DNA of 64,000 nucleotides from Candidatus Cryosericum sp. (GTDB taxonomy: Bacteria; Acidobacteriota; Polarisedimenticolia; Gp22-AA2): NCBI GenBank assembly GCA_035649235.1, contig DASRJX010000119.1:5549-69548 (forward strand), read 5' to 3'. Positions 20,637-59,812 of this stretch are shown piece by piece. Made by a program: the position numbers and the translations under genes. The stretch's first letter is position 1. Each line of letters starts with the position of its first letter. Under the pieces are notes generated by a model that worked only from the letters and a program-made list of their open reading frames with translations, did not search any database and was not told the DNA's origin.

Positions 20637-22361
20637 TCAGTGGGGGAGCGGCACCTCGTAGATGTAGAACGCGTGCCCCACGACGGCGCGCGGCGGCGTG
20701 CGCAGGATCCAGTTCTCCGGGCCCCGGCCGAGCAGGCCGATCGAGCGCGCCAGGAGGTGCGCGCTGATCGCGTGCAGGCCCGGCGGCAGTCCTTTCACGA
20801 TGTCGTCCGTCGTCAGCCGGTCGTACACCAGGCCGTGGTGCTGCGGCAGCGCCGTCCCGAAGTAGGCGAGGCCGATCCGGCGTCCCGGGGCGTGCTCGTC
20901 GAGCCAGGCCTTGAGCTGCTTGAGCCCCTGTCCCCAGTCGACGTTCGAGTCGTCCAGCCACAGAGGGCCGCAGGCGCTGCCGCCGTCCCACCCGAGCCTG
21001 GACGGTTGGGACAGGAGGCAGGCCGACTCGTTGAAGTACGACAGATGGTCCGGATAGATGCCGGCCGCTCCGACGACGAGCCACGCGAGCAGCGCCAGAA
21101 GGCCCAGGCGCTGCCAGAGAACGCCCGAATTCCACAGCGACCGCGCCCCCACGCCGCCGACGAGATAGAGGCACGGCAGCGCCGGGATGAGATAGCGGAA
21201 CCCCAGATTGTGCGGCAACGGGACGGCGAAGAACAGCCGCAGGGGCAGGTGCAGGAGGCCGGTGTAGAAGGCGAAGAAGGCCAGGGGGGGCAGGAGGACG
21301 AACGCGCCGTCCAGCGCCGGGACGTCGCCACCGCGCCGGAGCAGCCTGAGCCCGCCGAGGGCCGCGAGGAGGATCGCCGGGATCGGCTCCTTCAGCAGAT
21401 AGGCCACCGCGTAGTAGGTCCAGAAGAGGGGCTGGAAGCCGCCGGCCATGTAGGGCCAGTAGGTCGGGTTGTGGTCGGCGTTCACACGCGCGATCCCCTG
21501 CAGGTAGAGGAAGGGATTGCGCGGCAGGAAATAAAGAAGATGGAGGACGACCGCGGCCATCATCAGGAACACCATCGCGAGCGCCAGGCTGCAGACGATC
21601 CGCGGCCCGCCCGCCTCCCCGGCGTACGGATCGACGAGGCTCGAGGATCGGCGCGGGACCTCCGCCGGGATCCAGCGCGTCGCCAGGAGCAGAACGAGGA
21701 GCGCCAGGGGCGGCAGCAGGATGCCGGAGAACTTCGCGCCCAGAGCGCCTCCCAGGGCCAGGCCGCACAGCACGAGGCGCTTGAGCGAGCGATGGTTCAG
21801 GTATTCCCAGAGGGCCCAGAGGAACAGCACCGCGAACAAGGCAAAGCCGGTGTCGGTGGCCACGAGGACGCCGTGCGCCACGATCGATGGGTCGAAGGCG
21901 AGAAGTGCTATCGCCATCAGCGCCGGCATCGTCCCGAGCATCCGCCGTCCCCAGGCGTAGACCGCCCACCCGAGGACGAGCGTCAGACCCAGGAACGGCA
22001 GTCTGGAGAGGAACATCACCCGATCCGGGTCGTTCTGGTAGAGCACCGCCTGGCCGATCTCCCACTGCAGCGCCGGATCGGGATCGGTGCTGACGCCCCG
22101 CCACGCCTCCTCCGTCACCGGCCACCTTACGCCTCCGAGGACGAGCGGCAGGGCGCCGATTTCCTTCAGGAGAGGCGGGTGCTGGAGGTTGATCTTGAAC
22201 TCGCCTGTCGTCAGGTACGACAGACCGGCTGCGATGTGTGCCGGCTCGTCGAAGGTGGGGGACTTGAGGCGCAGGGCCGGCCATGCCTGCAGGCCCAGGG
22301 CCGCGAGGATCAGGGTCGCCGCGACGTTCGCCGCCCCGGAACCGCGCGCAGCGCTCCGCAT
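20637..22361 (-). CDS. GT-C-fold membrane glycosyltransferase (ArnT/PMT-like, GT39/GT83-type), paralog 1
   Basis: Multi-TM N-terminal half with a periplasmic-loop DE motif (TFDEPAHIAAGLSY). About 575 aa. Paralogous to 22476-24383. Confidence 0.65.
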   Translation of the reverse strand: MRSAARGSGAANVAATLILAALGLQAWPALRLKSPTFDEPAHIAAGLSYLTTGEFKINLQHPPLLKEIGALPLVLGGVRWPVTEEAWRGVSTDPDPALQWEIGQAVLYQNDPDRVMFLSRLPFLGLTLVLGWAVYAWGRRMLGTMPALMAIALLAFDPSIVAHGVLVATDTGFALFAVLFLWALWEYLNHRSLKRLVLCGLALGGALGAKFSGILLPPLALLVLLLATRWIPAEVPRRSSSLVDPYAGEAGGPRIVCSLALAMVFLMMAAVVLHLLYFLPRNPFLYLQGIARVNADHNPTYWPYMAGGFQPLFWTYYAVAYLLKEPIPAILLAALGGLRLLRRGGDVPALDGAFVLLPPLAFFAFYTGLLHLPLRLFFAVPLPHNLGFRYLIPALPCLYLVGGVGARSLWNSGVLWQRLGLLALLAWLVVGAAGIYPDHLSYFNESACLLSQPSRLGWDGGSACGPLWLDDSNVDWGQGLKQLKAWLDEHAPGRRIGLAYFGTALPQHHGLVYDRLTTDDIVKGLPPGLHAISAHLLARSIGLLGRGPENWILRTPPRAVVGHAFYIYEVPLPH

Positions 22362-22475
22362 CGCGCGGCATCGTAGCACAGGCCGAAGGCGCTCTCCGGG
22401 GCTTCCGGCCGTTGACGCTGCCTGCCGCGTGCACTAGATTCGCGCCTCGGTTGCGCCCGACGAGGAGCCCCCGCG

Positions 22476-24383
22476 ATGCGCCGCCAGCCGCCCAGGAAGG
22501 AGGTCCCCAGGCAGGTCCCCGCTCCGCCGGCGGACGCCCCTCCCCAGGATCGCCGCGCCGCATGGCTGGCGGGCGCCCTCCTCCTCGTCCTTTTCCTGCA
22601 GGGGCTCGTCTTCATCACCGAGTCGTCGCAGACGAGCGACGAGGCGGCGCACCTGGCCGCCGGCTACTCGTATCTCGTCCGGGGCGACTTCCGGCTCAAC
22701 ACGGAGCACCCGCCGCTCATGAAGGAGCTGGCGGCCCTGCCGCTCCTGCCGCTGCATCTCGATTTCCCCTGGGGGCCGCTGTGGGAGCAGGCCGAGGAGT
22801 GGAACATCGGCCGGATCTTCGTGCACGAGAACCACGTGGCGAACGACACGCTCCTCTTCCTCGGCCGCCTGCCGATGCTCCTGCTGTCGCTCGGGCTCGG
22901 CTGGGGGATGTACTGCTGGGGACGACGCCTGTTCGGCGCCCCGGGCGCGCTCCTCGGCCTGGCGCTCTATGTCCTCGACCCGAATGTCGTGGCCCACTCG
23001 GGCCTGGTGACGACCGACCTGGGCGTGACCCTGTTCATCTTCCTCGCGGTGTACGCGTTCTGGTGCTGGTGCGAGCGTCCGTCGCGCCGCACGCTCGTGC
23101 TGCTGGGCCTGGCCACGGGCGGCGCCTTCGCGGCCAAGTACACCGCGGTGTGGCTGCCGCCGATCCTGGCGGCGCTGGGGGCGGCGCTCCTGTTCCTGCG
23201 GGCCCCTCTCCCGCGCTGGCCGCTCGCGGCCGCGGACCGGCCGTCACCGCCGGCCGTCTCGTTCGCGGGCCGCCTCGGCGCGCTCGCCTCGGCGGCGGCC
23301 CTGGTGATCGCGATCGGCTTCGTCGTGCTGGCGCTCTCCTATGCGGTCGTCGGTCTCCCCACGTTCCTGGAAGGACTGGACCGCGGTCTACACCACTCCG
23401 CCATCGGGCACCGCGCCTACCTGATGGGAAGAATCTCCGAGTCTGGCTGGTGGTACTACTTCCTCTTCGCCTGGCTCGTGAAGACTCCCCCCGGGACGAT
23501 CCTGATCGTGGCGGCCTCGCTCGCGGCGCTTCTGTTCGGGCGGAGGCGCAGCGCCCGCGACGAGCTGTTCCTCTACCTCCCGGTTCTCGCCACCCTCGCC
23601 ATCACCTGCCTCTGGAAAGTCAACATCGGCCTCCGGCACATCCTGCCGATCTATCCGTTCCTGTATCTCGGAGCGGGACGGCTGCTGATGCACGTCGGGG
23701 CGGCGGCCGCTCCCGCCCCCGCCGCAGGACCGCGGATGTCGAGGCTGGCGGTCCCGGCGGCCGCCCTCCTGCTCGGCTGGAACGCCGTCGAGATGGTCCG
23801 GATAGCCCCGCACCACCTGGCCTACTTCAACCTCCTCGTCGGCGGGCCGGCGAACGGCCACAGGTACCTGCTCGACTCGAATCTCGACTGGGGCCAGTCG
23901 GCCAAAGCACTCCGCCGCTTCCAGGAGGGCGAGCGCCTGCCGGTTCTCTACGTGGCCTTCAGCGGCAACACCGATCCTTTCTACTACGGCGTGCGCTATC
24001 AGTACGTCCCCGGAACGGGCAATCTCCTGGCTTCGAAGGTGCGGCCCCAGCGCATGCCCGAGCGGGCCCCGCGCGAGCTGTTCGCCATCAGCGCCATGGT
24101 CCTGCACTCGCTCCATTTCAGCACCCACGACCTGTACGACTGGCTGGCCGCCAGGTCACCTGTGGCCATGCCGGGATACTCGTTCCTCGTGTACGACATC
24201 ACGGGAGAACCGGAGAGCCACGCCCGGATCGCCGAACTGTGTCTCAGCTTCAAGCTCTGGGACCTGGCGGCGTTCGAGGCGGGGAGGGCGCTCGCCCTCG
24301 ATGCGCAGAACGGCCTGGCGCATGCGGTCCTGCAGCGGCTCGCCGAGGTCTCCCCCCAACCCGAGACCGGAGGGAGGCCCTGA
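22476..24383 (+). CDS. GT-C-fold membrane glycosyltransferase (ArnT/PMT-like), paralog 2
   Basis: TSDEAAHLAAGYSYLVRGDFRLNTEHPPLMKEL aligns with paralog 1 (SPTFDEPAHIAAGLSYLTTGEFKINLQHPPLLKEI). 635 aa, multi-TM. Confidence 0.65.
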   Translation: MRRQPPRKEVPRQVPAPPADAPPQDRRAAWLAGALLLVLFLQGLVFITESSQTSDEAAHLAAGYSYLVRGDFRLNTEHPPLMKELAALPLLPLHLDFPWGPLWEQAEEWNIGRIFVHENHVANDTLLFLGRLPMLLLSLGLGWGMYCWGRRLFGAPGALLGLALYVLDPNVVAHSGLVTTDLGVTLFIFLAVYAFWCWCERPSRRTLVLLGLATGGAFAAKYTAVWLPPILAALGAALLFLRAPLPRWPLAAADRPSPPAVSFAGRLGALASAAALVIAIGFVVLALSYAVVGLPTFLEGLDRGLHHSAIGHRAYLMGRISESGWWYYFLFAWLVKTPPGTILIVAASLAALLFGRRRSARDELFLYLPVLATLAITCLWKVNIGLRHILPIYPFLYLGAGRLLMHVGAAAAPAPAAGPRMSRLAVPAAALLLGWNAVEMVRIAPHHLAYFNLLVGGPANGHRYLLDSNLDWGQSAKALRRFQEGERLPVLYVAFSGNTDPFYYGVRYQYVPGTGNLLASKVRPQRMPERAPRELFAISAMVLHSLHFSTHDLYDWLAARSPVAMPGYSFLVYDITGEPESHARIAELCLSFKLWDLAAFEAGRALALDAQNGLAHAVLQRLAEVSPQPETGGRP

Positions 24384-24388
24384 GAACC

Positions 24389-25567
24389 ATGACACCCGAC
24401 ACCAGTCCTACCGACGGCAGCCGGCACAGCAGCGCTCCACGGCGTGGCCGCGCATCCACGGCACGTCGTGACCGCACCGGATTCGTCGCCGTCGCGGCGG
24501 CTCTCCTCTGCGGACAGGCGCTGAGCATCCCGTCGAGCTTCGCCATCACCGTCGTCGAGCCCACCTACCTGCCGGCCGGCGTGAGCGACTTCGCGGGGAC
24601 GCTCGGCTGCCTCCGGTCGCCGGAGGGAGGCGTGGACGCCGTCGATCTGAAATCCGGCCGGTCGCTCTGGCGCTCCGACGCAAGGGCCCGGCCGCTCCTC
24701 GTCACCGGCGGGCGGGCGTTCCTCCTCGAGGAGAGCGCCAAACAACCGCTGCGACTCGTCGTCCGCACGGCGCAGGACGGCCGGCAGGTCCGGGCGTACG
24801 ACCTCGCGAGCCTCGCTCTTCCCCCCTGGGCTTCCTTGTCCGAACAACGGGAGGCACGGCAGTGGACCGAGTTCGAGGCCGCCGCCCGGCTCATGGGCGA
24901 CAAGCTCGAGATCCACTACATCGTGACCCGCAGGCAGGTCTCCGGGATGGCTGGGCCGGGTGCCGCGGCCCAGGTTGAGGGCGTGGCGCTCGTCGCGCTG
25001 GACTCGGGCCGGATCGCCGGCCAGATTGGGCCGCCGTCGCCTCCTCCGCTCGTCTCGGAGCCCGCGCCGCCGATGGCGGGCGTGCGCTTCGTCGCGCTCC
25101 ACGCGCGCCCAGCCGACGCGAGGATCGTACTCGGTGGACCTCCTGCCAATGCCGGCACGGCCCTGATCGCAGGGGAACGGCGGATGGCCTTCGAACTGAG
25201 CCGGGACGCCAAGACGGTCCTCGTCCACCGCTGGAGCTACGCGGGAGGATCGCGGGAGCCCGTGCTGCGCCTCGAGCACGGGCAGCCGACCGACGCCGTC
25301 TGGGTGACGCTCGACCGGCGGCATGTCCTGCTGCGGCGCGCCTCCGATCAGCGCTTCTACGATCTGTACTCGCTCGACAGCGCGAAGTCCGAAGGGAAGC
25401 TGGAGGCGCCCGTGGATGTCGCGGTCGTCGGCCAGCGCGTCTACTGGACGACGCGCGAGTCCAAGGGCCGCCTGGTGCTGGCGGCCTCGAGCCTGGAAGC
25501 CGGCCGGAAGCTGTGGCGCCACACCGTGCGCCGTGCAGAGGGCCCTCCCGGGGAGCCGATCCCGTAA
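24389..25567 (+). CDS. Hypothetical exported protein, possibly beta-propeller-like; co-directional with paralog 2, 5 bp downstream
   Basis: ATG 24389 with GGAGGGAGG RBS. Signal-like hydrophobic segment. No family assignment. Confidence 0.5.
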   Translation: MTPDTSPTDGSRHSSAPRRGRASTARRDRTGFVAVAAALLCGQALSIPSSFAITVVEPTYLPAGVSDFAGTLGCLRSPEGGVDAVDLKSGRSLWRSDARARPLLVTGGRAFLLEESAKQPLRLVVRTAQDGRQVRAYDLASLALPPWASLSEQREARQWTEFEAAARLMGDKLEIHYIVTRRQVSGMAGPGAAAQVEGVALVALDSGRIAGQIGPPSPPPLVSEPAPPMAGVRFVALHARPADARIVLGGPPANAGTALIAGERRMAFELSRDAKTVLVHRWSYAGGSREPVLRLEHGQPTDAVWVTLDRRHVLLRRASDQRFYDLYSLDSAKSEGKLEAPVDVAVVGQRVYWTTRESKGRLVLAASSLEAGRKLWRHTVRRAEGPPGEPIP

Positions 25568-25591: not shown

Positions 25592-27727
25592 TCAGCGACC
25601 ATCCGGATCCCGCCCCGCTCCTGGCGCTGACGAGGGCGCGTTCCGGCGCAGCCGCTCGAGGACGCTCCGGGCTTCGTCGTCCATGACCTCGCCTCGGGTG
25701 TCCAGGGTCAGCGCGCGCTCGAGGGACTGGAGCGCGCCATCGAGATCGCCTGTCCGGAACTGCAGCAGGCCGAGGCTCCGTTGCGGGACCGGCGAGGCGG
25801 GCGACAGACGGATCGATTCGCGATAGGCGGCGGCCGCCTCCGGCACCCGGCCGGCTTGCTCCAGCGCCCGCCCCATCTGGTAACGGAGGATGGCGTCCGC
25901 CGGTCGGACCTCGGCGGCCGCGGCGAAAGCCTGGGCGGCGGCCTGAAAGTCGCCAGCCGCCGAGCGCGCCAGGCCGAGATTGACCAGGTAATCGGCGTTC
26001 CCGGGGACGAGACGCGCCGCCTCCGAGTAGGCCTTGACGGCGTCTCCTGTCCGTCCGAGAGCGAGCCGTGCGGCGCCGAGGTTGTTCCAGCCCCGATCGC
26101 TCCGCGGGTCGAGCCCCACCGCCTTCTCCAGGACCGCGAGCGACTCCCCCGGACGACCGGCGCGGTTCAACGCGTGGCCCAGGTTCACCAGGTAGGTGAT
26201 GTTCTCCGGCTGCTCGGCGAGGGCCTTCTGGTAGTGTTCGATAGCCTCCTCCCAGTTCATCCCCCGCGACAGGAGCCCCGCCAGGTTGTATTGGGCGTCG
26301 GCGAAGCCGGGCCAGATGCCGATCGCCGCCCGATAACCCCGCTCGGCGGCCGCTCGATCGCCGGCCTCCTCGGAGGCGGTCCCGTAGTTGAACTGCGCGC
26401 GCGCGCTCGCCGGCGTGACGGCGACCGCCGCGGCGAAGATCGTCCGGTCGTCGCGCCAGTCGACGAGGCGCACGACGCTCCGGAGCGCCAGGAGGCCGAG
26501 AGCCCCGATCAGGATCGATTTGAAGAGGACGGGCCGCCCTTTCGTGGCGAGCGTCCGGGACGGCAGGAGCGCGGCCACCAGCAGGCAGAAACCAACCGAA
26601 GGCAGGTAGAGCAGCCGCTCCGCCATGATGGTGCCGATCGGGTAGAGCAGGTTCGAGACGGGCGCCAGGGCCAGCCCGGTGAACAGGAGCGAGAAGGCTG
26701 CCGCGGGGCGCCGCCGCCAGGCCGCCGCCACTCCAGAGGCGGCCGCGAGCAGGATCAGGCCGCCCAGGACAACCGGCGGCTCCAACGCCGACAGGGCCGG
26801 CGGCAGCGCGTTGTAGGAGTGATCGATCGACAGCCGCAGCGGGAACACCAGGAGGAATGCATAACTCGCGAGCGCCTTGAGCGCCGTCAGGCGTCCGAGG
26901 ACGAAGGGCTGATAGGCGATCGGGTTGTCGATATAGTGGGTGAAGCGCGCAACACCGATTTGGCCCAGGACCGACGCGCGGACCCAGAGCAGGAGGAGGA
27001 AGACGAGCGCCGACGCCGCGTGGTAGCCCCAGGCGGGGCGCGCGGCGGCCCCGCCCCGGGCGCGCGGCCGGGTGAGGTCCGCTGCCAGGGCGATGAACGG
27101 GACGGCGACGGCGTTCTCCTTGGACAGGAACCCGACGGCGAACGCGAGCAGCGACAGCGCGAGCGCCGGCCACGCGGGCTTCGGCGAAGAGGCCGCGGCG
27201 CGGTCCCGCCCTTCCAGGAAGAACAGGACGGCCAGCATCGCTCCGAGCGCGGCCAGGAGATCGCCGCGACCGACCACGAGACCCAGCACCTCGGTGTGAA
27301 CCGGATGGACCGCGAACAGGAGCCCGGCGAGAAGCGCCGGTTCGACGGACGGATCGAGGGCCGTCGGCCTCGGCCGATCGAGGACGCGGCGCCCCACGGC
27401 GAAGACGAGCGCCGCCACCAGGGCGTGGAGCAGGAGGTTCACGAGGCGGTAACCGAAGGGATGGAGCCCCGCGACCGCATGGTTGAGGGCGAACGACAGG
27501 ATGGTGACGGGACGATAGAGGTTCGGTACCTCCTCGTCGTTCACCGTCCAGTAGCCGTGCGTCAGGATCGCGGGAAGGCGCCCCGGATCGCGGACCAGCT
27601 CGTTCTGCTCGATGATCCGGTGGTCGTCGTGGATGAAGCCGGGGAGCAGGGACGGGAGCCCCGCCAGGACGGCGGTCAGGACGACAAGAAGCAGCGGACG
27701 GGCGGGGGCCCGGCCGCGGTCAGGCAT
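25592..27727 (-). CDS. TMTC-like protein: DUF1736-type GT-C membrane domain fused to C-terminal TPR repeats (putative protein O-mannosyl/glycosyl-transferase)
   Basis: N-terminal roughly 450 aa multi-TM domain with LPGFIHDDH.. motif. C-terminus has at least 8 TPR units (AxxYxxAL... pattern). Confidence 0.6.
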   Translation of the reverse strand: MPDRGRAPARPLLLVVLTAVLAGLPSLLPGFIHDDHRIIEQNELVRDPGRLPAILTHGYWTVNDEEVPNLYRPVTILSFALNHAVAGLHPFGYRLVNLLLHALVAALVFAVGRRVLDRPRPTALDPSVEPALLAGLLFAVHPVHTEVLGLVVGRGDLLAALGAMLAVLFFLEGRDRAAASSPKPAWPALALSLLAFAVGFLSKENAVAVPFIALAADLTRPRARGGAAARPAWGYHAASALVFLLLLWVRASVLGQIGVARFTHYIDNPIAYQPFVLGRLTALKALASYAFLLVFPLRLSIDHSYNALPPALSALEPPVVLGGLILLAAASGVAAAWRRRPAAAFSLLFTGLALAPVSNLLYPIGTIMAERLLYLPSVGFCLLVAALLPSRTLATKGRPVLFKSILIGALGLLALRSVVRLVDWRDDRTIFAAAVAVTPASARAQFNYGTASEEAGDRAAAERGYRAAIGIWPGFADAQYNLAGLLSRGMNWEEAIEHYQKALAEQPENITYLVNLGHALNRAGRPGESLAVLEKAVGLDPRSDRGWNNLGAARLALGRTGDAVKAYSEAARLVPGNADYLVNLGLARSAAGDFQAAAQAFAAAAEVRPADAILRYQMGRALEQAGRVPEAAAAYRESIRLSPASPVPQRSLGLLQFRTGDLDGALQSLERALTLDTRGEVMDDEARSVLERLRRNAPSSAPGAGRDPDGR

Positions 27728-28862
27728 GCGAAGCAGGAGCCTTCGCCGGGCCTACGACTTCGCCTTTCAGCCCGGTCGGCCCTCCGTAGCGCTCGTCGAA
27801 CAGCCGCCCCCACACGGTGCGGCGGAAGCGGGCGATGCGCGCGCGGCCGACGGTCGGATACCAGAGGAGGTCGTGGTAGATGTTCGAGGCCAGAGGAGCC
27901 CAGACGACGAGCGGCGAGTGGAGTGCTATGTGCTCCAGGAAGCGCAGCGGTCCCAGCCGCAGCATCTGGTCCCCCCAGATCACCAGCGACCGGCTGACCT
28001 TGAAGTGGAGGTTCATCCCCGACACGTCGTCCCCCACCACCTCGATGCCTGCCGGATCGGCGACGCCCAGGCCGCGATCGTGGCACATGCGGAGATACGG
28101 GATCGTGAGCGGGTCGAAGCCCATGAGGCGCGCCGCGACGGCGTCGATCGCCACCGAGTCGGCCCCCGCCAGGATGACGTTCCCCTCCACCGGCACCATG
28201 GTGCGCGGACCGGCGCCGTCGCCGCACACCGTGCCGTCCATGACCGCGAAGATCCCGGGGTGCAGCTCCCGCTGCATGAGCATCAGGTCGACCAGCACCT
28301 CGTGCATGTACTTGTGGGCGTAATGCCGGACCTCCTTGAGGAGGCCGCCGAAGGCGTTCTTGACCGCCCCCGTCGTCGTGGCGTGACCGTGCGTCTTGAC
28401 CGTCGGGAAATGCAGGATGTTCTTCCCGGGGTAGATGGCGGGGATCTCGATCCCCTCCGGGAAGATTTCGTTCAGGCGCATGAGCTTCGTCTTGAACCGG
28501 TAGACCGTCCACGCCGCCTCGTGCAGGGCCGTGAAACGCAGGCCGTGCCGTTCCAGGATCGGCAGCCAGCGGTTGTTGGCGGCCCCCTTCCAGGGGTCGG
28601 TCACGACCGTCTTGTTCTCCACCGGCAGCAGGTGCTGACGATCGAACCCCTGCTCGAGGAGCCCCTGAAGCACCCCCTCGAGCTGCCACGGCTGCGACGA
28701 GCACGCGGGGTAGTACTTGGTCCAGGAGAGATTGAGCTTGAGGAGGGTGGGGATGGACGGATCGAGGGCCGGCCGGAGACCCGCGAGGCGCAGGAGACGT
28801 CCGTAGTCCCCGAGGACGGTCCCCGGCGTCGTCTTGAGAACCGCGATGCGCGGGCGTGTCAC
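27720..28862 (-). CDS. DUF362 domain protein
   Basis: ...ILAGADSVAIDAVAARLMGFDPLTIPYLRMCHDRGLGV... signature. Start overlaps the TMTC-like gene by 8 nt (operon). Confidence 0.5.
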   Translation of the reverse strand: MTRPRIAVLKTTPGTVLGDYGRLLRLAGLRPALDPSIPTLLKLNLSWTKYYPACSSQPWQLEGVLQGLLEQGFDRQHLLPVENKTVVTDPWKGAANNRWLPILERHGLRFTALHEAAWTVYRFKTKLMRLNEIFPEGIEIPAIYPGKNILHFPTVKTHGHATTTGAVKNAFGGLLKEVRHYAHKYMHEVLVDLMLMQRELHPGIFAVMDGTVCGDGAGPRTMVPVEGNVILAGADSVAIDAVAARLMGFDPLTIPYLRMCHDRGLGVADPAGIEVVGDDVSGMNLHFKVSRSLVIWGDQMLRLGPLRFLEHIALHSPLVVWAPLASNIYHDLLWYPTVGRARIARFRRTVWGRLFDERYGGPTGLKGEVVGPAKAPASHA

Positions 28863-29501: not shown

Positions 29502-29972
29502 TCAGTGCGATCGCGGCTCGAGGCGCGACACCAGGACCTGGTCGAGCGACAGGGGACCGGCGCCTGCGACGCCCAGCCAGACGAAGAGCACGATGTACAG
29601 GTACTCGACGAAACCGAAGAGGCTGGCGATCCCCTGGTAGTCCTCCCGGCGCGCCGTCACGATGGCCACGATCATCGTGACGATGAGCGGCACGCAGGCA
29701 AGCCGCGTGAACAGGCCGACCAGGAGGAGGGTGCCGCACACGAGCTCGGCCCCCGCGGCGAGAGGCGCCTGGAACTCCGGCACCGGGATCCGCAGCTCCC
29801 GGAAATACGACACGATGTCGGGGAGGTGGTTCACCTTCCCCCAGCCGGCCTGCAGGAACAACCAGCCGACCGTGATGCGCGCCAGGGCGGGCGGCAGCCA
29901 CGACAGAATCCCGGCCACGTTGAGAACGAATCGCCGCACCGCCACTGCTCCGCTCATGAGTCCGTGCATCAC
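29502..29972 (-). CDS. DoxX-family membrane protein
   Basis: 4-TM, DoxX-like helices (WLFLQAGWGKV...). 156 aa. Confidence 0.65.
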   Translation of the reverse strand: MMHGLMSGAVAVRRFVLNVAGILSWLPPALARITVGWLFLQAGWGKVNHLPDIVSYFRELRIPVPEFQAPLAAGAELVCGTLLLVGLFTRLACVPLIVTMIVAIVTARREDYQGIASLFGFVEYLYIVLFVWLGVAGAGPLSLDQVLVSRLEPRSH

Positions 29973-29979
29973 TCCTCCT

Positions 29980-32685
29980 TCAGCGCGACTTCCCCAGCTC
30001 CTGCAGGAGCCGTCCCGCGAGGGCCGTCCAGCCGGTCTGGTGGCTGGCGCCGACGCCCCGCCCGGTGTCGGCGTGGAAGTACTCGTAGAAGAGCACCAGG
30101 TCCTTGAAGTGCGGGTCGTCCGCGTACCGTGCCTCGTCGCCGTGGCAGGGGCGGCGGCCGTCGCGGCCGGGCAGGAAGATCGACGCCAGCCTGCGGCGCA
30201 GCTCGTCGGCCACCTCCTGGAGGTCCATCAACCGCCCGGAGCCAACCGGACACTCGACGCGCAGGCTGTCGCCGTAGAAATGGTGGTAGCGCTCCAGCGC
30301 CTCGATCAGGAGGTAGTTGACGGGGAACCAGATCGGCCCCCGCCAATTGGAGTTGCCGCCGAACAGGCCGGTGTCGGACTCGGCCGGCGTGTAGTCGACG
30401 CGGTGCTCGGTGCCGTCGATCCGGAGGACGAAGGGATGTCGCTCGTGCACCCGAGACAGCGAGCGGATCCCGAACGGCGAGAGGAACTCGTTCTCGTCGA
30501 GCACGTAGCGGAGCACCCGCAGCAACCGCTCTCGCGAGGTGATGGCCAGTAGCAGGTGCTCGTGGCCGCCGCCCATCGGCACGATGTGCGAGATCTGCTT
30601 CGCCAGATCGACGCGGTTCCGGATGAACCAGTCGAGTCGCTTCTTGAAGCCCGGCAGCCTCCCGACGTGCTCCATCTCCAGTACGCTCACCGCGAACAGC
30701 GGGATGAGGCCGACGAGCGAGCGGACGCGGATCGGATGGCTCCGGCCGTCGACGTGCAGCTGGTCGTAGTAGAAGCCGTCCTCCTCGTCCCACAGCCCCA
30801 TGCCGCCGAGGTTGTTCATCGCGTCGGCGATCGCCACGAAGTGCTCGAAGAACTTCGATGCCATGTCCTCCGTGGCGGGGTTGTCGCGCGACAGCTCGAG
30901 CGCCATCGCCAGCATGGTGGCGGCGTAGGACGCCATCCATGCGGTGCCGTCCGCCTGCTCCAGACGGCCGCCGGTCGGCAGCGGCCGGCTGCGATCGAAG
31001 ACGCCGATGTTGTCGAGGCCCAGGAACCCGCCCGAGAAGAGGTGGTTCCCCTCCTCGTCCTTGCGGTTCACCCACCAGGTGAAGTTGATCAGGAGCTTCT
31101 GGAAGCAGCGCGACAGGAACGCCCGATCCCGTCCGCCGCGCGGCCCGGTCATCTTGTACGTGCGCCAGCAGGCCCAGGCGTGGACCGGTGGATTGACGTC
31201 GCCGAACGCGAACTCGTACGCCGGCAGCTGCCCGTTCGGGTGCATGTACCACTCTCGCAGGAACAGCACGAGCTGTTCCTTGGCGAACTGCGGATCGAGG
31301 GTCGCGAGCGGGATCATGTGGAAGGCGAGATCCCACGCCGCGTACCAGGGATACTCCCACTTGTCCGGCATCGAGATGACGTCCCGGTTGAACAGATGCC
31401 CCCAGTCGGAGTTCCTTCCGAGCCGCCGCGCCTGAGGCGGCGGCGGTTGCGCCGGGTCCCCTTCGAGCCAGTCGCGCACCACGTAGTGGAAGAACTGCTT
31501 GCTCCAGAGCAGCCCGGCGTACGCCTGCCGCGCCACCTGCTTCTCCTCGGCCGTGAGCGCCGCCGGCAGCCGTCCGGCGTAGAACGCGTCCGCCTCCGCG
31601 CGGCGCTCCGCCACGATCCGGTCGAACGCGGCCGGCCCACGGCTCGGCGCCCGGGGTGCCGCCTGGCCCGGCCGGCCCGCTTTGGCGAGTCGCAGCCGGA
31701 TGGTCGCGGTGCCGCCCGCGGGGATGACGAACCGGTGGAGGAACGCCGCCTTGGTACCACTCCGCGCCGGGTTGACCGCGTCCCGGCGGCCGCGCACCAC
31801 GTACTCGTGGAAGGCGTCCTTGACGAACGGCGTGCCATTCGGCGCGCCATAGAGGCGCTCCGCATTGGTCTCGTTCTCGGTGAATAGCGGTTCGGGACCC
31901 CTCCCGTCCGGACTGGCGCCGTCCGCGGGGCCGGCGGCGGCGAGCGTGAAGGTTCCGAGCGTGACGTGCCGCGCCAGCAGGGCGCCGCCCCGGTCGAGCT
32001 CGATCCCGGGCTTCTCCCAGTAACCCTCCCCCGTGCGCCCCCACGACCAGGTGTTCCGGAACCAGAGGGTCGGCAGGACCGTGATCGGCGCGGGCTCGGG
32101 TCCGCGATTGGAGATCCGCAGCACGATCAGGATGTCGTCCGGCCCGGCCTTGGCATACTCCGCCAGGACGTCGAAGTAGCGGCCGCCGTCGAAGGCACCG
32201 CCGTCGGCGAGCTCGAACTCGCGATCGCGCTTGCCGCGGCGCGCGTTCTCTTCCAGGAGGCGGCGGTAGGGAAACTCCGTCTGGGGGTACTTATAGAGCG
32301 CCGTCATGTAGGAGTGCGTCGGGGTGGCCTCGAGGTAGTAGTAGCACTCCTTCACGTCCTCGCCGTGGTTCCCCTCCGGGCCGGTGAGGCCGAACAGCCG
32401 CTCCTTGAGGATCGGATCGCGCCCGTTCCACAGCGCGATCGCGAAGCACAGGCGGCACTCCCGATCGGTGATCCCGAGGAGGCCGTCCTCGCCCCAGCGG
32501 TACGCCCGGCTGCGCGCGTGTTCGTGGGGGAAGTAGCTCCAGCACTCGCCGCCGGCGGAATAGTCCTCGCGCACGGTGCCCCACTGGCGCTCGGCCAGGT
32601 ACGGGCCCCAGCGCTTCCAGTTGGCGCGACGCGCGGCGTCCTCGGCGAGGCGGGCCTCCTCGGCGGTCGGGCTCTTCTGGCTCAT
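29980..32685 (-). CDS. Large (alpha/alpha)6-barrel glycoside hydrolase, GH63-like / MGH1-like glucosidase family
   Basis: ATG 32685. About 900 aa. N-terminal beta-sandwich plus C-terminal barrel with conserved acidic motifs ([27 protein letters not shown]). Family call from overall resemblance. Confidence 0.5.
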
Positions 32686-32885
32686 GCGCGGGATTATGCG
32701 ACGGATCGGCGTCGGCGATCTCCGTGGCGACCGAGACCGACCTCGTCGAGGAGGGATTGACGGACGGGACCTCGCCGGGCGTAGCATGCAACGTGCCCCG
32801 CCTGCGCCTGCGCGGCGTCCTCACGGAGATGGCCCTGGCGCCCGGCACGGGACCGGGCGCTGCCCAGAATCCAGGGAACGCAGAC

Positions 32886-34450
32886 GTGAGGCGCTGCGCC
32901 GCGATCGCGGTCCTGATCCTGATCCTCGCGACCGCCTACCTGCTGGCGGCGAGCCGGGCGGCCGGAGAGCCGGGCCTGCCGCTCGACGACTCCTGGATCC
33001 ACGCGCGCATCGCCCGCAACCTCGTGGAGGGGAACGGCTTCGCCTTCAACCCCGGAGAGACCGCCGCGGCCTCGAGCGCGCCGCTCTGGACCCTGCTCCT
33101 GGCCGTGCCGGCGGCGCTCCGGCTGCCGTTCCCCTGGGCCTCGTACGTGGCGGGGATCGCGTCGGCCATGGCACTCGCGCTCGTGGCCCGCCATCTGGCG
33201 GAGCGGGTCACGGGGGACCCGAAGGCAGGTCTTCTGTGCGCCGTCCTGGTGATCGGCAGCCATCCTTTCCCGTGGTCGGTCGTGTCCGGCATGGAGTCTC
33301 CGCTCGCCGCGGCGCTGGTGCTCGGGACGATCCTGTGCGCGGCCTCGGGATCCCTCCGCCTGGCGCTCGGCCTCGCGGCGGCCGCGGGCCTGACGCGACC
33401 CGAGATGGCGCTTCTGCCTATGCTCGTTCTGGCGGACCATCTGGTGCGGGATCGCTCCTGGTCGCCCCGGAGTCTCGTCGGGCCGGCGCTCGGGGCGACC
33501 GCGGCCGCCGCGGCGCCGTTCCTGTGCAACCGGCTCCTGACCGGCCGGTGGGTGTTCGGGTCGTTCGCGGCGAAGGTGGGCCGTCACGGCGTCCTCGCGG
33601 CGCTTGCGGAAGGGCGGGCCGATCTCCTGCCGGCGATTGCCTTGGCCAACCTGCCGCTCTATCTCGGCCCCCTGCTCGAGTCGCTGCTGCGGGACAACGG
33701 CGTCCTGCTGCTGCTGGCGCCCGTCGGGTTCCTGCGCCTGTCCCGGGGCGAGCGCCGGACGCACCTGCCCTGGATGGTCGGGATCCTGCTGCCGTGCGCC
33801 GTGGCGGTCCTGGCGCCGTTCGGCGGGCCGGCGTTTCACGAGCAGCGCTACGTGGCCCCGATCGTGGCCGTGTACCTGGTGGCAGGCTGCGCCGGTCTCT
33901 TCACCCTCTTCCGGCGCCCGGGCCGGGAGAGAGTCCTGGTCGTGGCCATGGTGGCGGCCACCGGGCTGTCCGCCTGGGGGGCGGGGCAGGGACTGCGGCG
34001 CTATGCTCTCGAGGTGAAGAACGTGACCGAGATGCAGGTCCGCATCGGGCGCTGGCTCGCTCCGCGCACGGCGGGACAGGAGCCGATCGCGACCAACGAC
34101 ATCGGCGCGATCGGCTTCTTCACCCGCGCGACGATCCTCGACCTCACGGGCCTCGCCTCGCCCGAGGCGATGCCGTACCTGCGCCGCGCGGCCCCGCCTG
34201 GAGGTGTGAACCGCGGCTGGAACGGCGCGAGCGAGGCCGGGCTCCTGGAGTTCCTGAGGGCCCGGAAGCCGGCCTACGTCGCCCTCTTCCCCTCCTGGTA
34301 CCCCAGCCCGGAATTCCGCCGGAGTCTCGGAGAGGAAGTGTTCCGCGTCGACCTCGAAGACAACCTGATCTGCGGGGATCGAACGATGATCGTGTATCGC
34401 CCCGCCTGGCAGGCGGCGGCCGGGTCTTGTCCCGGTCTACGGCGCGACGG
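32886..34450 (+). CDS. GT-C-fold membrane glycosyltransferase, paralog 3; 3' end uncertain because the frame has no stop codon until 35600
   Basis: GTG 32886 (alternative ATG 32829/32724). Multi-TM with periplasmic PLDDSWIHARIARNLVEGNGF motif. After about 34440 the frame runs antisense through the UbiA-like gene with D/E/R/H-rich translation, so the end coordinate is approximate. Confidence 0.45.
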
Positions 34451-35345
34451 TGGGACTCGCCACGTAGAGCAGGAGGACCACCGTGATGCCCCACAGCGCC
34501 ACGTTCAGCAGCAGCGGGAGGTCCGTCAGGAGGGCCTGCGTCGGGCTGCTCCCCTCCCCTCTCTGATGGACGAGGTAGAGGTAGCGGAAGATGCCGTACA
34601 GGACGAACGGCACGGTCAGGTAGAGGTAGGGGGTCCGGAGTCGCATCTCCACCTCGGGGGAGATGGTGTAGAACATGTAAGCGACGACCGTCGACGCCGT
34701 GACGACGCCGATCATCTGATCGAGGAACGCCACCGAGTACTCCCGGAGGATGCTGCGATGCCCGTGGGCGTCCGCCAGCGTCTCGAGCTCCTGACGCCGC
34801 TTGCAGAAGGCCAGGAACAACGACAGGAGGATGGTGCACATGATGAGCCAGGTGGAGATCGGCACGTCGATGATGAGACCGCCGCCGATGGCCCGGAGCA
34901 CGAAGCCGGCGCTGATCACCATGACATCGATGATGACAACCTCCTTCAGCCAGAAGGAATACACCAGGTTCAGCGCCGCGTACGCCAGCAGGACCGCTCC
35001 GAACGGCGGCGACAGCGCGAAGCCGGCCATGAGCGACAGGCTGGACAGGACGACCGCGGCGACCGTGGCGGGCACGATCGACAGCGCGCCGGAGGCGATC
35101 GGCCGGCGGGCCTTGGCGGGGTGCTTGCGGTCGCGCTCGGCGTCGAACAGATCGTTGACGATGTAGACCGCGCCGCTGATGGCGCAGAACAGCAGAAACC
35201 CCAGGATCGCGTTCCGGCAGGCGTGCGGGATCAGGAGGCTGCGCGAGAAGAGCAGGGCCGCGAAGACGACGAGGTTCTTGATCCACTGCCGCGGGCGCAT
35301 CGACAGCGCCACGCCGACGAGCGTCCCTCCCGGCCGACGCCGCAT
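34437..35345 (-). CDS. UbiA-family prenyl-phosphate phosphoribosyltransferase, decaprenyl-phosphate 5-phosphoribosyltransferase (Rv3806c/DPPR synthase)-like
   Basis: WIKNLVVFAALLFS and YIVNDLFDAERDRKHPAKARRPIASGALS, a UbiA NDxxDxxxD motif in the arrangement typical of DPPR synthases. 8-9 TM. Confidence 0.65.
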   Translation of the reverse strand: MRRRPGGTLVGVALSMRPRQWIKNLVVFAALLFSRSLLIPHACRNAILGFLLFCAISGAVYIVNDLFDAERDRKHPAKARRPIASGALSIVPATVAAVVLSSLSLMAGFALSPPFGAVLLAYAALNLVYSFWLKEVVIIDVMVISAGFVLRAIGGGLIIDVPISTWLIMCTILLSLFLAFCKRRQELETLADAHGHRSILREYSVAFLDQMIGVVTASTVVAYMFYTISPEVEMRLRTPYLYLTVPFVLYGIFRYLYLVHQRGEGSSPTQALLTDLPLLLNVALWGITVVLLLYVASPTVAP

Positions 35346-36187
35346 CAGGCGGGGAGCCGGCGGGCCCTGCGGCGCGGGAAGAGCGCCAGCCCCCTGAGCG
35401 CCTCGCTGGCCGCACCGCCGCGCCGCACGGCGATCATCTCCGCCGCGATGCTGACGGCGATCTCGTCCGGCGTCTCGGCGGCGATCGGCAGCCCGATCGG
35501 AGCCCGCAACGTATCCAGCGCCTCCCGGGGCGTCCCCATCTCGAGGGCCCGGGCCACCACGGTTTTCACCTTGCGCCGGCTGCCGATCAGCCCGACGTAG
35601 GCGGCTCCGCGCCCCACGGCGTGACGGACGGCCTCGAGATCGGTCTCGTGGCAGCGGGTCACGATGGCGACGTACGCTCCCTCGGGAACGGGAGGCAGGC
35701 CGTCCTTGAACTGGGCTCCGGCGCGCACGCGGGTCACCGCGGCAGGAAAGCGACTCTCCTTGAGCTCCCGCTCGCGATCGTCGACGACGGACACCAGGAA
35801 CCCGAGGCGGACGGCAAGGCGGGCCAGGGCGCGGCCCACGTGACCGGCGCCGTAGATGAAGAGGGGCGGCGCCGGGGCGATGACCTCCACCAGCACCCGG
35901 ACGGCGCCGCCACACACCATGCCGGTGGAGCCCTCACCGTGCCGGGTGAACCGGTACTCCTTCTCGAACCCCGCGCCGCGCCGCAACGCCTCCCTGGCGT
36001 CGCCGATGACGAGCGCCTCGAAGGCTCCGCCGCCGATGCTGAAGGCGGTGGAGCCGTCGGCGCCGATCAGCATCTTCGCGCCGATGTCCCGCGGCGCGGA
36101 GCCCTGCCGGTGGATGACGGTGGCGATCGCCACCGCCCGGCCGGCGCGCAGCCAGCGTCCCACCCGCTCGTAGAAGGGCAGGCTCAT
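35345..36187 (-). CDS. XdhC/CoxI-family protein (molybdo-enzyme maturation factor-like)
   Basis: XdhC_CoxI N-domain (AIATVIHRQGSAPRDIGAKMLI) plus Rossmann XdhC_C domain (IYGAGHVGRALARLA). Confidence 0.65.
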   Translation of the reverse strand: MSLPFYERVGRWLRAGRAVAIATVIHRQGSAPRDIGAKMLIGADGSTAFSIGGGAFEALVIGDAREALRRGAGFEKEYRFTRHGEGSTGMVCGGAVRVLVEVIAPAPPLFIYGAGHVGRALARLAVRLGFLVSVVDDRERELKESRFPAAVTRVRAGAQFKDGLPPVPEGAYVAIVTRCHETDLEAVRHAVGRGAAYVGLIGSRRKVKTVVARALEMGTPREALDTLRAPIGLPIAAETPDEIAVSIAAEMIAVRRGGAASEALRGLALFPRRRARRLPA

Positions 36188-37149
36188 CTCGGCGGTGTGG
36201 CGGCGTGGTTTCTGGCCCACCAGCGTTGCCAGGGCTCCGGCTTCGTACCCAGCGACTGGCCGGTGATGCGGGCGAGGGTCTCCGCCGCCGAGTCTCGCGC
36301 CGGCCCTTGAGCATCCTTCAGCCGGTCGATCAGGTACGGCACCAGAGCCGGATCGTTGAGGCGCGAGAGCGCGCTGTAGGCGCTGGCGCGCAGTTCCGGA
36401 GCCGGATCGCTTTCGCCCATCGAGCGCAGGAGCGCGCGGGTGGCCTCGTCGTCTCGTCCGGCGAGAGAGGTGATGACGTCGGAGCGCACCTCCATGGCGG
36501 GGTGCTGCACGAGCCGGCCCAGTGCTGTGACGGCCTCCGGTTCCTGGAACTGCCCCAGGGCCTGCACGGCCGCGCGCGCGACGGCGAGCTCGGGATGGCG
36601 GGCGGCCTTCTCCAGGAACGGGATTCCGGCGGGATCTCCCAGGGCGCCGACCGCGAAGCACGTACCCTCGAGGAGATCGGCCGGGCGGTTCTCTTCCACG
36701 CCGGCGAGCAGGACGCCGAGCGCAGCCGGATCGCCGCCACCCCTGTGGATCAGGTTGGCCACCAGGATCCGGCTGTCGCTCAGCTCCCTGGCGGGCCTGA
36801 CCCGGATCGGGTTGTAAGGGAGCATGACCCGGCGGCCGACCGCGAGCTGGGCCCGGAGCGCCTCGCGGGCCCCGGGCTGCGGCATGCGCGCCAACTGGAT
36901 GATCGAAGTCGCACGGTTGAGGGGGACCTTGCTGTCGAGGCCGCGAACGAAAACGGCGTAACCCCCGGACTCGACGATGGACTCGATCTTGTCCGCCGCC
37001 TCCTGGCGGGCCTCCACGTCCTCACTGCCGAGCGCCGCAAAGAGCGCGTCGGCGTTCTCGGCCGGGGCGCAGCCCCCAAGCAGCGCGGCCGTCGCCAGGG
37101 CGACGAGCGCAGCGCATCCGCGACCGACGGGCCGATCGGGAGTCCTCAC
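36184..37149 (-). CDS. HEAT/PBS-lyase-repeat lipoprotein
   Basis: GTG 37149. Lipobox LLGGCAP. Repeated AVxALGxxGDPxAxPxL HEAT-like units. Confidence 0.5.
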   Translation of the reverse strand: MRTPDRPVGRGCAALVALATAALLGGCAPAENADALFAALGSEDVEARQEAADKIESIVESGGYAVFVRGLDSKVPLNRATSIIQLARMPQPGAREALRAQLAVGRRVMLPYNPIRVRPARELSDSRILVANLIHRGGGDPAALGVLLAGVEENRPADLLEGTCFAVGALGDPAGIPFLEKAARHPELAVARAAVQALGQFQEPEAVTALGRLVQHPAMEVRSDVITSLAGRDDEATRALLRSMGESDPAPELRASAYSALSRLNDPALVPYLIDRLKDAQGPARDSAAETLARITGQSLGTKPEPWQRWWARNHAATPPR

Positions 37150-37622
37150 GACTCCTCCTTGTCGTGCAGCGTCCGGAGCAGGATGATCTCGAGCGCGCGC
37201 GTGCCCGCGGGGATCCGGATCGTCACCTCGTCGCCCACCTTGCGCCCCACGAGGGCCTTGCCGATGGGCGAGGTGACGGAGATGAGCCCCTTGGAGAGGT
37301 CGGCCTCCTCCGAAATCACCAGCTCGTAGGCGAATTCCTTGTCCGCCTGCGTGTCGTAGACGGTCACCGTCGACCCGAGGCCGGCGCAATCCCGCGGTAG
37401 ATTGTCGAGGTCGATCATCGACAGGGTCCGCAGCTGGGCCTGGACCTGGCCCATGCGGGCCTGGACGTAGTGTTGGCGCTCCAGGGCGGCCTGGTACTCG
37501 GCGTTCTCCCGGAGATCCCCCAGCGCCTTGGCCCGCTGGATCTCCTTGGGGAGTTCCACGCGGTACTCTCTATCCAGCGCCTTCAACTCCTTCTCGAGCC
37601 TTTCACGCGAACGGTGCAGCAT
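37146..37622 (-). CDS. greA: Transcription elongation factor GreA
   Basis: N-terminal coiled coil with the conserved acidic DLRENAEY motif and C-terminal FKBP-like domain. 158 aa. Confidence 0.9.
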   Translation of the reverse strand: MLHRSRERLEKELKALDREYRVELPKEIQRAKALGDLRENAEYQAALERQHYVQARMGQVQAQLRTLSMIDLDNLPRDCAGLGSTVTVYDTQADKEFAYELVISEEADLSKGLISVTSPIGKALVGRKVGDEVTIRIPAGTRALEIILLRTLHDKEES

Positions 37623-50152: not shown

Positions 50153-50153
50153 G

Positions 50154-51605: not shown

Positions 51606-51688
51606 CGTTGTCCGCGCACCAAGTTATAGCGAGATCCGATCCGGCCGCCCCGGCCCGTAGGCGTGCGGCTGATGGAGGGCTCTCTGGC

Positions 51689-53506: not shown

Positions 53507-53580
53507 CGCACGGGCCACGCGCCACGGGCGTTGATATTTCTCGGGCGGGCCCCTAGATTCCGTTTCGGAGCGAGCGCGCG

Positions 53581-58258: not shown

Positions 58259-58567
58259 TCAGCGCCCCCGCTCGCGCTCCTGATCGCGGTACCGGTTGAT
58301 GGTCTCGACCAGGTGATCTTCGCAATAGACCCGGCCACGCGCCACGCGCCGGCCGCACCGCGGGCAGGCGGGTGCCGTGATCCCCGATCGGGCACGCGCC
58401 ACGAGGGACGCCACCAGCCCACCCACGAGGCTGGCCGCGCCCGCCGCCAGCACGATGCGGAACAGCCGGGGGTCCGCGCCGCCCCAGAAGGTGTCGAAGA
58501 GGAAGAGATAGAGCACATCCCCCACGACGAGCAGCGTTCCGATGCGGGACAGGAGCCTCGAGATCAC
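58259..58567 (-). CDS. Small membrane protein with C-terminal zinc-ribbon (CPRCG...YCEDH)
   Basis: Two TM helices plus CxxC...C.DH. 102 aa. Confidence 0.4.
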   Translation of the reverse strand: MISRLLSRIGTLLVVGDVLYLFLFDTFWGGADPRLFRIVLAAGAASLVGGLVASLVARARSGITAPACPRCGRRVARGRVYCEDHLVETINRYRDQERERGR

Positions 58568-59694: not shown

Positions 59695-59812
59695 TCGAGC
59701 CGGGGTAGGGGCCGCGTCGGGAGCGCCCGATCGGCCCGGGCGCCCGATTATCCTTGCCGGCCGCCGGGGTGTCAACCGGCGCGCGAGCCCGGCGACCCGC
59801 CCCGGCCGCCGC

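Follow-up and report, generated by a model that had tools for sequence, protein, structure and literature searches.

The decaprenyl-phosphoarabinose pathway of mycobacteria comprises Rv3806c, Rv3807c, DprE1/DprE2, and AftB. DprE2 is a short-chain dehydrogenase/reductase (SDR). AftB (GT89), a tuberculosis drug target, is a terminal β-(1→2)-arabinofuranosyltransferase whose donor is a polyprenyl-phosphate D-arabinofuranose formed by DprE1/DprE2; to our knowledge, no other GT-C has yet set a precedent for retaining pentofuranosyl transfer. In the pilin D-arabinofuranosylation system of Pseudomonas aeruginosa PA7, DprE1/2 homologs and the GT-C TfpW are encoded together with a defined protein acceptor. 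The underlying logic, in which a polyprenyl-phosphoribose synthase, a flippase, and a GT-C cooperate, was established biochemically in Citrobacter (Kelly et al., PNAS 2024, PMC11127046), and three-component pentofuranosylation systems were reported to be widespread, occurring also in Gram-positive bacteria and in a phage (PMC11127046). Here, a 64,000-nt stretch (referred to as the window) of contig DASRJX010000119.1 was analyzed, in which a gene of the UbiA prenyltransferase family lies tail-to-tail with a gene for a GT-C glycosyltransferase, designated GT-C3. In the explanation that we favor and regard as fairly probable, the region encodes an acidobacterial member of the known extracytoplasmic pentofuranosylation pathways, with GT-C3 as a likely consumer of the lipid-linked donor that came to lie beside the UbiA gene recently.

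The initial annotation, made from the sequence of the window alone, presented the region as a previously undescribed pentosylation system, a description that goes too far in view of the characterized systems mentioned above. With the ORF15-ORF14-ORF12 system of Citrobacter youngae O1/O2 (PMC11127046) the region shares an Rv3806c-like synthase encoded in one locus with GT-Cs, the expected route from phosphoribosyl pyrophosphate (PRPP) through lipid-P-Ribf-5-P and lipid-P-Ribf to flipping and periplasmic GT-C transfer, and the optional nature of the epimerase, which decides which pentose gets added. Unlike in Citrobacter, the synthase is not fused to a HAD phosphoribose-phosphatase domain, neither a MATE flippase nor an epimerase of the ORF13 or DprE1/2 type was found in the window, and the GT-Cs are AftB-like and PMT/TMTC-like and probably do not belong to GT136. 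Further differences are the conserved DUF362 partner and the uncultured acidobacterial host. The PA7 system is similar in that its host is Gram-negative and its GT-C is supplied by a stand-alone polyprenyl-phosphoribose synthase that is not fused to HAD; a separate phosphatase sets it apart (PMC11127046). Further differences are the DprE1/2 homologs and the defined protein acceptor of PA7, and none of these components was seen in the window.

The UbiA-family gene

As the G+C content of the window is 70% and spurious long open reading frames (ORFs) are frequent, coding frames were chosen by third-position GC content (GC3). This frame analysis and the translations confirmed the two convergent genes (Table 1). 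The direct family scan of the window covered approximately 40 ORFs, and the ccm stretch at 37.9–45.2 kb was covered through the precomputed Pfam labels of L001, one of four assemblies (one from ENA and three from JGI; L001, L002, L088, and L089) that contain DNA 99.3–99.9% identical to the window. The nearest relatives of several window genes were found in metagenome-assembled genomes (MAGs) labelled Acidobacteriota or “Candidatus Polarisedimenticolia”.

The UbiA protein matched the general Pfam UbiA family with an E-value of 1.4e-24 and scored 287.8 bits on the NCBIfam equivalog NF008977 (decaprenyl-phosphate phosphoribosyltransferase, cutoff 234) and 220.6 bits on NF008978 (cutoff 207); its ortholog in L168 reached 296.8 bits. 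The scores obtained with the models of heme o synthase (33.9 bits vs. a cutoff of 210), 4-hydroxybenzoate prenyltransferase (24.6 vs. 275), and chlorophyll synthase (24.9 vs. 313) were far below the cutoffs, and the whole set, which also included EboC and GGGP synthase, gave 19–34 bits against cutoffs of 205–313. The top match among PDB sequences was Rv3806c of M. tuberculosis (8j8j, E 3.6e-35), which aligned over the full length (residues 4–289), and the second one was an archaeal UbiA with an E-value of only 1e-3.

The active site of Rv3806c is kept as well. When its catalytic and substrate-contacting residues were mapped onto the window protein through the HMMER alignment, 11 of the 13 were identical (R22, K28, Y70, N73, D74, D77, D81, K87, R90, Y138, and K143), and two were substituted (Q135 by N126 and Y157 by F148). 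Both the Mg2+/pyrophosphate ligands and the residues that bind phosphoribose are identified in the structure paper, which also reports that Phe occurs at position 157 in some mycobacteria (PMC10994848). All seven residues of the Mg2+/pyrophosphate site (N73, D77, R22, K87, R90, Y138, and K143) have identical counterparts (N64, D68, R17, K78, R81, Y129, and K134, respectively), and the same is true for the phosphoribose-binding K28 and Y70 (K23 and Y61), although these binding sites are not conserved across the wider UbiA superfamily (PMC10994848). No HAD domain was detected in the protein; the HAD-fused model NF006088, whose cutoff is 351, gave 199 bits and matched through its C-terminal half only. 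Judged by its sequence, the UbiA protein belongs to the Rv3806c/DPPR-synthase subfamily, and its family membership and conserved residues predict the corresponding enzyme activity. Since the NF008977 score, the Rv3806c match in PDB, and the phosphoribose residues agree, the subfamily assignment of the initial annotation (DPPR synthase-like rather than a quinone, heme, or chlorophyll prenyltransferase) was correct.

GT-C3

GT-C3 had no match in the Pfam scan. Its homologs in the protein database (n = 90) are approximately 510–520 aa long, end 0–15 aa past a conserved “RPxW” motif, and some of them have been named “arabinofuranosyltransferase” by JGI. The AlphaFold2 (AF2) model, which like the profile used below was built on 60 homologs, showed a GT-C_A fold with a mean pLDDT of 94.5. 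In Foldseek searches the model matched AftB (9dlf and 9dlh), which combines this fold with a periplasmic C-terminal domain, with E-values of 2e-7 to 2e-6 and TM scores of 0.52–0.56 over 531–547 columns. As STT3, ALG12, ArnT, and PglB were found at E-values similar to that of AftB, the fold alone does not discriminate between the GT-C families; AftB was nevertheless among the top three fold matches and had the highest sequence identity (18%).

A more specific relationship was indicated by the profile search. The 60-sequence profile (A2) had a single match among all PDB sequences, which was AftB (9dlf, E 7e-15), aligned over the entire transmembrane domain (profile positions 20–377); with the earlier profile of 11 sequences (A1) no PDB match was obtained. 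In this alignment, D62, R221, R372, T91, E172, and T274 of AftB correspond to D35, R171, R321, S64, E137, and S226 of GT-C3, and these six columns are kept in 93–100% of the 60 family members. In AftB, D62 of the DD motif is the nucleophile, R221, R372, and T91 contact the phosphate, E172 contacts the C5-OH of arabinose, and T274 lies beside C2 (PMC12041299). The nucleophilic Asp, both phosphate-binding Arg residues, the sugar-contacting Glu, and the Ser/Thr position are thus shared with the mycobacterial enzyme, and for this reason GT-C3 appears to be the most plausible consumer of the donor. The two proteins also differ considerably: GT-C3 has approximately 515 aa in contrast to the 669-residue chain in 9dlf, and its only NCBIfam match, the AftB model NF041481, was limited to residues 34–99. 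GT-C3 is accordingly classified, on these sequence comparisons, as a remote AftB-like GT-C and not as an AftB ortholog.

The label “GT-C paralog 3” given by the initial annotation could not be kept. GT-C1 and GT-C2 of the window are 33% identical to each other, while GT-C3 showed only a remote relation to GT-C1 (hhalign E 1e-5) and no detectable one to the GT-C with tetratricopeptide repeats (TPR GT-C), so its origin as a paralog of any of these three was rejected.

Gene order in related genomes

UbiA relatives (n = 402) were obtained in a scan of one genome per species, and the neighborhoods of 80 UbiA loci were traced by tblastn with the window proteins, because antisense ORFs polluted the clustering of raw ORFs. 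In the approximately 20 closest loci (58–79% UbiA identity) the genes follow the order GreA-HEAT-XdhC-UbiA-DUF362-TPR GT-C, with GT-C2 and GT-C1 lying beyond. The GreA-HEAT-XdhC-UbiA part is kept in 14–18 relatives, while synteny of UbiA with the TPR GT-C, PMT, and PMT_2 genes extends to about 10–20, and that with GT-C2 to 10. UbiA and the TPR GT-C share one strand in this array. In 20 Polarisedimenticolia-type loci the DUF362 gene starts on the same strand 14–372 nt past the UbiA match (1,271 nt in L012), and the same adjacency was found in four loci labelled Gemmatimonadota, “delta proteobacterium”, Solibacteraceae, and Armatimonadota, so approximately 24 loci contain it (L008–L028, L046, L055, L064, and L065). 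On an 830-kb contig the array has overlapping stop and start codons, and DUF362 is separated from the TPR GT-C by an arylsulfatase-like gene; in the window, the TPR GT-C gene overlaps the DUF362 stop by 8 nt.

The place of GT-C3 is different. In none of the approximately 20 relatives do GT-C3, GH63, and DoxX genes lie between UbiA and DUF362. GT-C3-family loci were found in metagenome contigs in at least 512 cases, and among the best 80 of these, which were inspected for flanking genes, only two had UbiA nearby, both 98–99% identical to the window; at the other 78 no DoxX or GH63 homologs were found beside the GT-C3 gene. The orthologs of 54–71% identity all stand in the context EF-P/FAA-hydrolase/LemA/M48-peptidase, GT-C3, B12-radical SAM, and in MAG CAYLND01 the UbiA cluster (L019) lies at a site apart from that of the GT-C3 ortholog (L005). 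Because the relatives lack the block and the GT-C3 orthologs are located elsewhere, the lineage of the window must have acquired a block of approximately 4.9 kb (DoxX, GH63, and GT-C3; 29502–34430) between UbiA and DUF362. The tail-to-tail arrangement noted by the initial annotation was therefore real as far as the two convergent genes are concerned, but the placement proved not to be conserved, and synteny of GT-C3 and UbiA was rejected because their adjacency is confined to near-identical contigs of the same population. As judged from these gene orders, the juxtaposition is recent and lineage-specific.

Several additional observations were made in the relatives. A divergent gene for an AglJ/Dol-P-hexose-synthase-like GT2 lies approximately 150 nt upstream of UbiA in L011, L015, L016, L019–L025, and others, and the same GT2 (64–65% identity) occurs approximately 6 kb from UbiA in the Latescibacterota loci L077–L086. 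In about 14 relatives this gene stands between XdhC and UbiA, which makes a functional link between the two doubtful. The arylsulfatase-like gene (PF00884) of the relatives, for example, that at 11136–12605 in L168, is located between DUF362 and the TPR GT-C. The window contains neither the sulfatase gene nor the divergent GT2. The complete gene order of the Polarisedimenticolia type (ccm-GreA-HEAT-XdhC-UbiA-DUF362-GT-Cs) was also found on L010, a contig labelled as Verrucomicrobiia, and on L013, one labelled as Patescibacteria; their UbiA identities are 76–79%, and both were probably mis-binned. At the usual GT-C3 site, LptD is encoded 6–9 kb downstream (L003, L005, L006, and L172), followed by two genes for NAD-dependent epimerases/dehydratases (SDR) and one for a DUF92 membrane protein, the arrangement of the SDR pair and DUF92 being kept in the four loci.

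The proposed pathway

In the proposed pathway, the UbiA protein would move ribose-5-phosphate from PRPP to polyprenyl phosphate at the cytoplasmic face of the membrane, a chemistry assigned from its family. The removal of the 5-phosphate and the flipping across the membrane would be carried out by enzymes encoded outside the window, and the resulting polyprenyl-phosphate pentofuranose would then be the donor used by GT-C transferases that face the periplasm. GT-C3 is predicted to add a terminal pentofuranose to an envelope glycan or protein. The sugar would be ribose, provided that the genome does not encode an epimerase outside the window. Undecaprenyl phosphate, and not decaprenyl phosphate, presumably acts as the lipid carrier. 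The cell is apparently of the Gram-negative type, since LptD lies near the GT-C3 orthologs in relatives. The best candidate consumers are GT-C3 on sequence grounds and the TPR and PMT-type GT-Cs on grounds of synteny. As for the history of the locus, the older conserved module consists of UbiA-DUF362-(sulfatase)-TPR GT-C and two PMT-type GT-Cs, and GT-C3 probably left its usual site, or was copied from it, landing with GH63 and DoxX between UbiA and DUF362 and losing its stop codon during the move.

The initial annotation took the region as a hint of a polyprenyl-phospho-pentose pathway. The DPPRS-type UbiA, the AftB-like GT-C3, and the array of UbiA with other GT-Cs agree with this, and the Pfam scan also found the three further GT-C genes and the GH63-like hydrolase that it had placed within 15 kb. 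The part that is not borne out by the window is the supply of a phosphatase, an epimerase, and a flippase. No FAD_binding_4/ALO (DprE1), PAP2, HAD, MATE, SMR, or GtrA family was detected in the window, either among the approximately 40 scanned ORFs or in the L001 labels, which agrees with the earlier statement that DprE1/DprE2 and PAP2 were not visible there, and no SDR match (DprE2 type) was seen in the scans of the same ORFs. DprE1/DprE2-like genes were also not found in the 21-kb neighborhood of L168, nor was a flippase (MATE, SMR, or GtrA) found in the L168 cluster. In this respect, the region differs from the mycobacterial pathway with its PAP2 phosphatase and DprE1/DprE2.

If the proposed pathway is true, glycosylation with lipid-linked pentofuranose would extend to Acidobacteriota, a phylum that is abundant in soil, mostly uncultured, and barely explored in its envelope chemistry, and the AftB-type GT-Cs would represent a broad environmental family, considering the number of relatives found in metagenome contigs. 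In the library searched, no paper was found linking Acidobacteria with these enzymes. The current understanding would not be overturned, since the logic of the pathway was published in 2024.

The missing stop codon of GT-C3

The reading frame of GT-C3 continues without a stop beyond its homology-supported part, and the first in-frame stop is at 35598–35600, past the whole antisense UbiA gene. GC3 of the frame is approximately 0.92 and drops to 0.57–0.65 past approximately 34350, and R, D, E, and Q are abundant in the extension. The scan revealed neither a terminator-like motif nor a promoter between the convergent genes. The possibility that the stop is missing through an assembly error was rejected, because the stop-less sequence recurs in all four further assemblies, which differ from the window only by SNPs and one in-frame 3-nt indel; thus, the missing stop is real. 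In 52 of 80 UbiA loci an ORF of at least 110 aa was present on the strand opposite to UbiA, so frames that stay open in antisense to this gene are not unusual.

Alternative explanations

Several points weigh against the pathway proposed above. GT-C3 reached only 28.6 bits on the AftB equivalog, whose cutoff is 1050, and is thus a remote relative whose donor specificity is unreadable from homology alone, and the adjacency of GT-C3 and UbiA, being found in this population only, lends little support to their link. In 26 more distant UbiA loci no recurrent GT-C partner was found among the 124 neighbor ORFs scanned, in which no Pfam family occurred more than four times. The phosphatase, the flippase, and the epimerase were not found within the window, and the PMT-type GT-Cs may use a polyprenyl-phosphate hexose instead, considering the Dol-P-hexose-synthase-like GT2 gene divergent from UbiA in relatives. 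The adjacency could accordingly result from a chance rearrangement, UbiA serving DUF362, the TPR and PMT GT-Cs, or targets elsewhere, and GT-C3 working independently, as at its usual LemA-M48 site, possibly with another lipid-linked sugar. The lack of UbiA in the available flanks of 78 of the best 80 GT-C3-family loci, the uniform context of the 54–71% identical orthologs, and the position of DUF362 directly after UbiA in every relative are in line with this explanation, which is possible, if rather doubtful. What speaks for a functional pairing is that AftB, the only detectable solved relative of GT-C3, uses a polyprenyl-phosphate pentofuranose and its sugar-contacting residues are kept, that the block landed right beside the one gene of the region that makes such a donor, and that at least one genome has both genes at separate sites, as pairing without linkage would allow.

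The structure of the GT-C3 gene itself raises further objections. It has no stop codon near its conserved end (~34409), and it differs from the L089 sequence by 14 SNPs in 1,545 nt, of which five are synonymous and nine nonsynonymous (including L117P and G367W), while UbiA has a single SNP in 909 nt. This contrast, an approximately eightfold difference in SNP density, may reflect relaxed constraint on the translocated copy. GT-C3 of the window could then be a decaying or poorly expressed copy, in which the translocation removed the stop codon, the product became unstable, and selection was relaxed; translation would run approximately 390 codons antisense to UbiA or end on a non-stop mRNA. The stop-less frame shared by all five sequences fits such decay, and so does the extension, which goes well beyond the point where the homologs stop and has the GC3 of noncoding DNA. 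We nevertheless consider it unlikely, because none of the five sequences has a disrupted 515-codon core, the sole indel comprising 3 nt and keeping the frame, every catalytic residue is present, and the SNP sample is small, with a nonsynonymous/synonymous ratio of 1.8 that lies below the neutral expectation of approximately 2.5–3. Hardly credible is the explanation by ordinary enzymes, in which the GT-Cs would be lipid A modifiers of the ArnT/EptA type and UbiA would prenylate aromatic compounds or tetrapyrroles (as UbiA, MenA, CyoE, or ChlG). The general Pfam UbiA match and the PMT_2 matches of GT-C1 and GT-C2 would allow it, as the PMT_2 family also includes ArnT. It is effectively refuted by the model scores and residues: the heme o synthase, UbiA, and ChlG models gave 24–34 bits against cutoffs of 210–313, and the phosphoribose-specific residues are kept. 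For the GT-Cs, the NCBIfam ArnT/EptA models had no match at E ≤ 0.01 in any of the four, sequence and profile searches did not pair them with the ArnT sequences of PDB, and none of the arnA, arnB, arnC, and arnD genes was found in the window, so orthology to ArnT/EptA, which the initial annotation named among the findings that would speak against its proposal, was not observed.

The DUF362 partner

The DUF362 protein is 75–89% identical across more than 120 clusters. DUF362 shares a Pfam clan with the N-terminal domain of LarA (PMC11770544), and the PDB search detected no solved DUF362 structure by sequence. The AF2 model was of moderate quality (pLDDT 74.6), with the conserved loops 157–162 and 212–224 poorly modelled, and its best fold matches in PDB were LarA-like nickel-pincer enzymes, with weak scores (E ~2e-3, TM 0.33–0.38). 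It is a speculation, and a quite improbable one, that DUF362 is a LarA-like enzyme, possibly with a nickel-pincer cofactor, which epimerizes or otherwise processes polyprenyl-phosphate ribose and would thereby provide a DprE1/DprE2-independent route to lipid-linked pentofuranose for AftB-like, possibly retaining, GT-Cs outside Actinobacteria. Through its position after UbiA, this large family gains a genomic association with the lipid-linked pentose pathway. What deserves further attention is the association of DUF362 and the breadth of the AftB-like family, the DUF362 partner being the only new lead.

Other genes of the region

The features of the region are listed in Table 1.

Table 1. Coordinates of the genes and features discussed in the text
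Feature	Position	Strand	Remarks
GT-C1, PMT_2 type	20637–22379	−	Pfam PMT_2 E 8.2e-15; syntenic in relatives
GT-C2, PMT/PMT_2 type	22476–24383	+	Pfam PMT_2 E 3e-12, PMT E 8.5e-6
TPR GT-C, TMTC/PMT_2-like with C-terminal TPR domain	25592–27727	−	Pfam PMT_2, TMTC_DUF1736, many TPR families
DUF362 protein	27720–28862	−	Pfam DUF362 E 1.6e-22; displaced from UbiA by the inserted block
DoxX	29502–29972	−	Pfam match
GH63/MGH1-like hydrolase	29980–32685	−	Pfam match
GT-C3, AftB-like GT-C_A glycosyltransferase (predicted)	32886–34409	+	Homology-supported coding part; GTG start at 32886, alternative in-frame ATG at 32829
Stop-less continuation of the GT-C3 frame	34410–35600	+	~390–396 codons, on the strand opposite to UbiA and to the XdhC 3′-end
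UbiA, polyprenyl-phosphate 5-phosphoribosyltransferase of Rv3806c/DPPRS type (predicted)	34437–35345	−	302 aa, without fused HAD phosphatase domain; NF008977, PDB match, residues
XdhC-like	35345–~36187	−	Upstream of UbiA; Pfam match; XdhC stop and UbiA start overlap by 1 nt
HEAT-repeat protein	36184–37149	−	Upstream of UbiA; Pfam match
GreA	37146–37622	−	Upstream of UbiA; Pfam match

An ORF of 392 aa at 24389–25567 (+), between GT-C2 and the TPR GT-C, has a coding-like GC3 and only a weak PQQ_2 match, and it is missing from the clusters of all relatives. Farther away, three proteins with a DUF4388 domain are encoded at 48452–50152, 51689–53506 (fused to DnaJ and TPR), and 58564–59775, and a TPR/peptidase-MA protein and a Ser/Thr kinase are encoded amid these genes (48452–55080 and 58564–59775).

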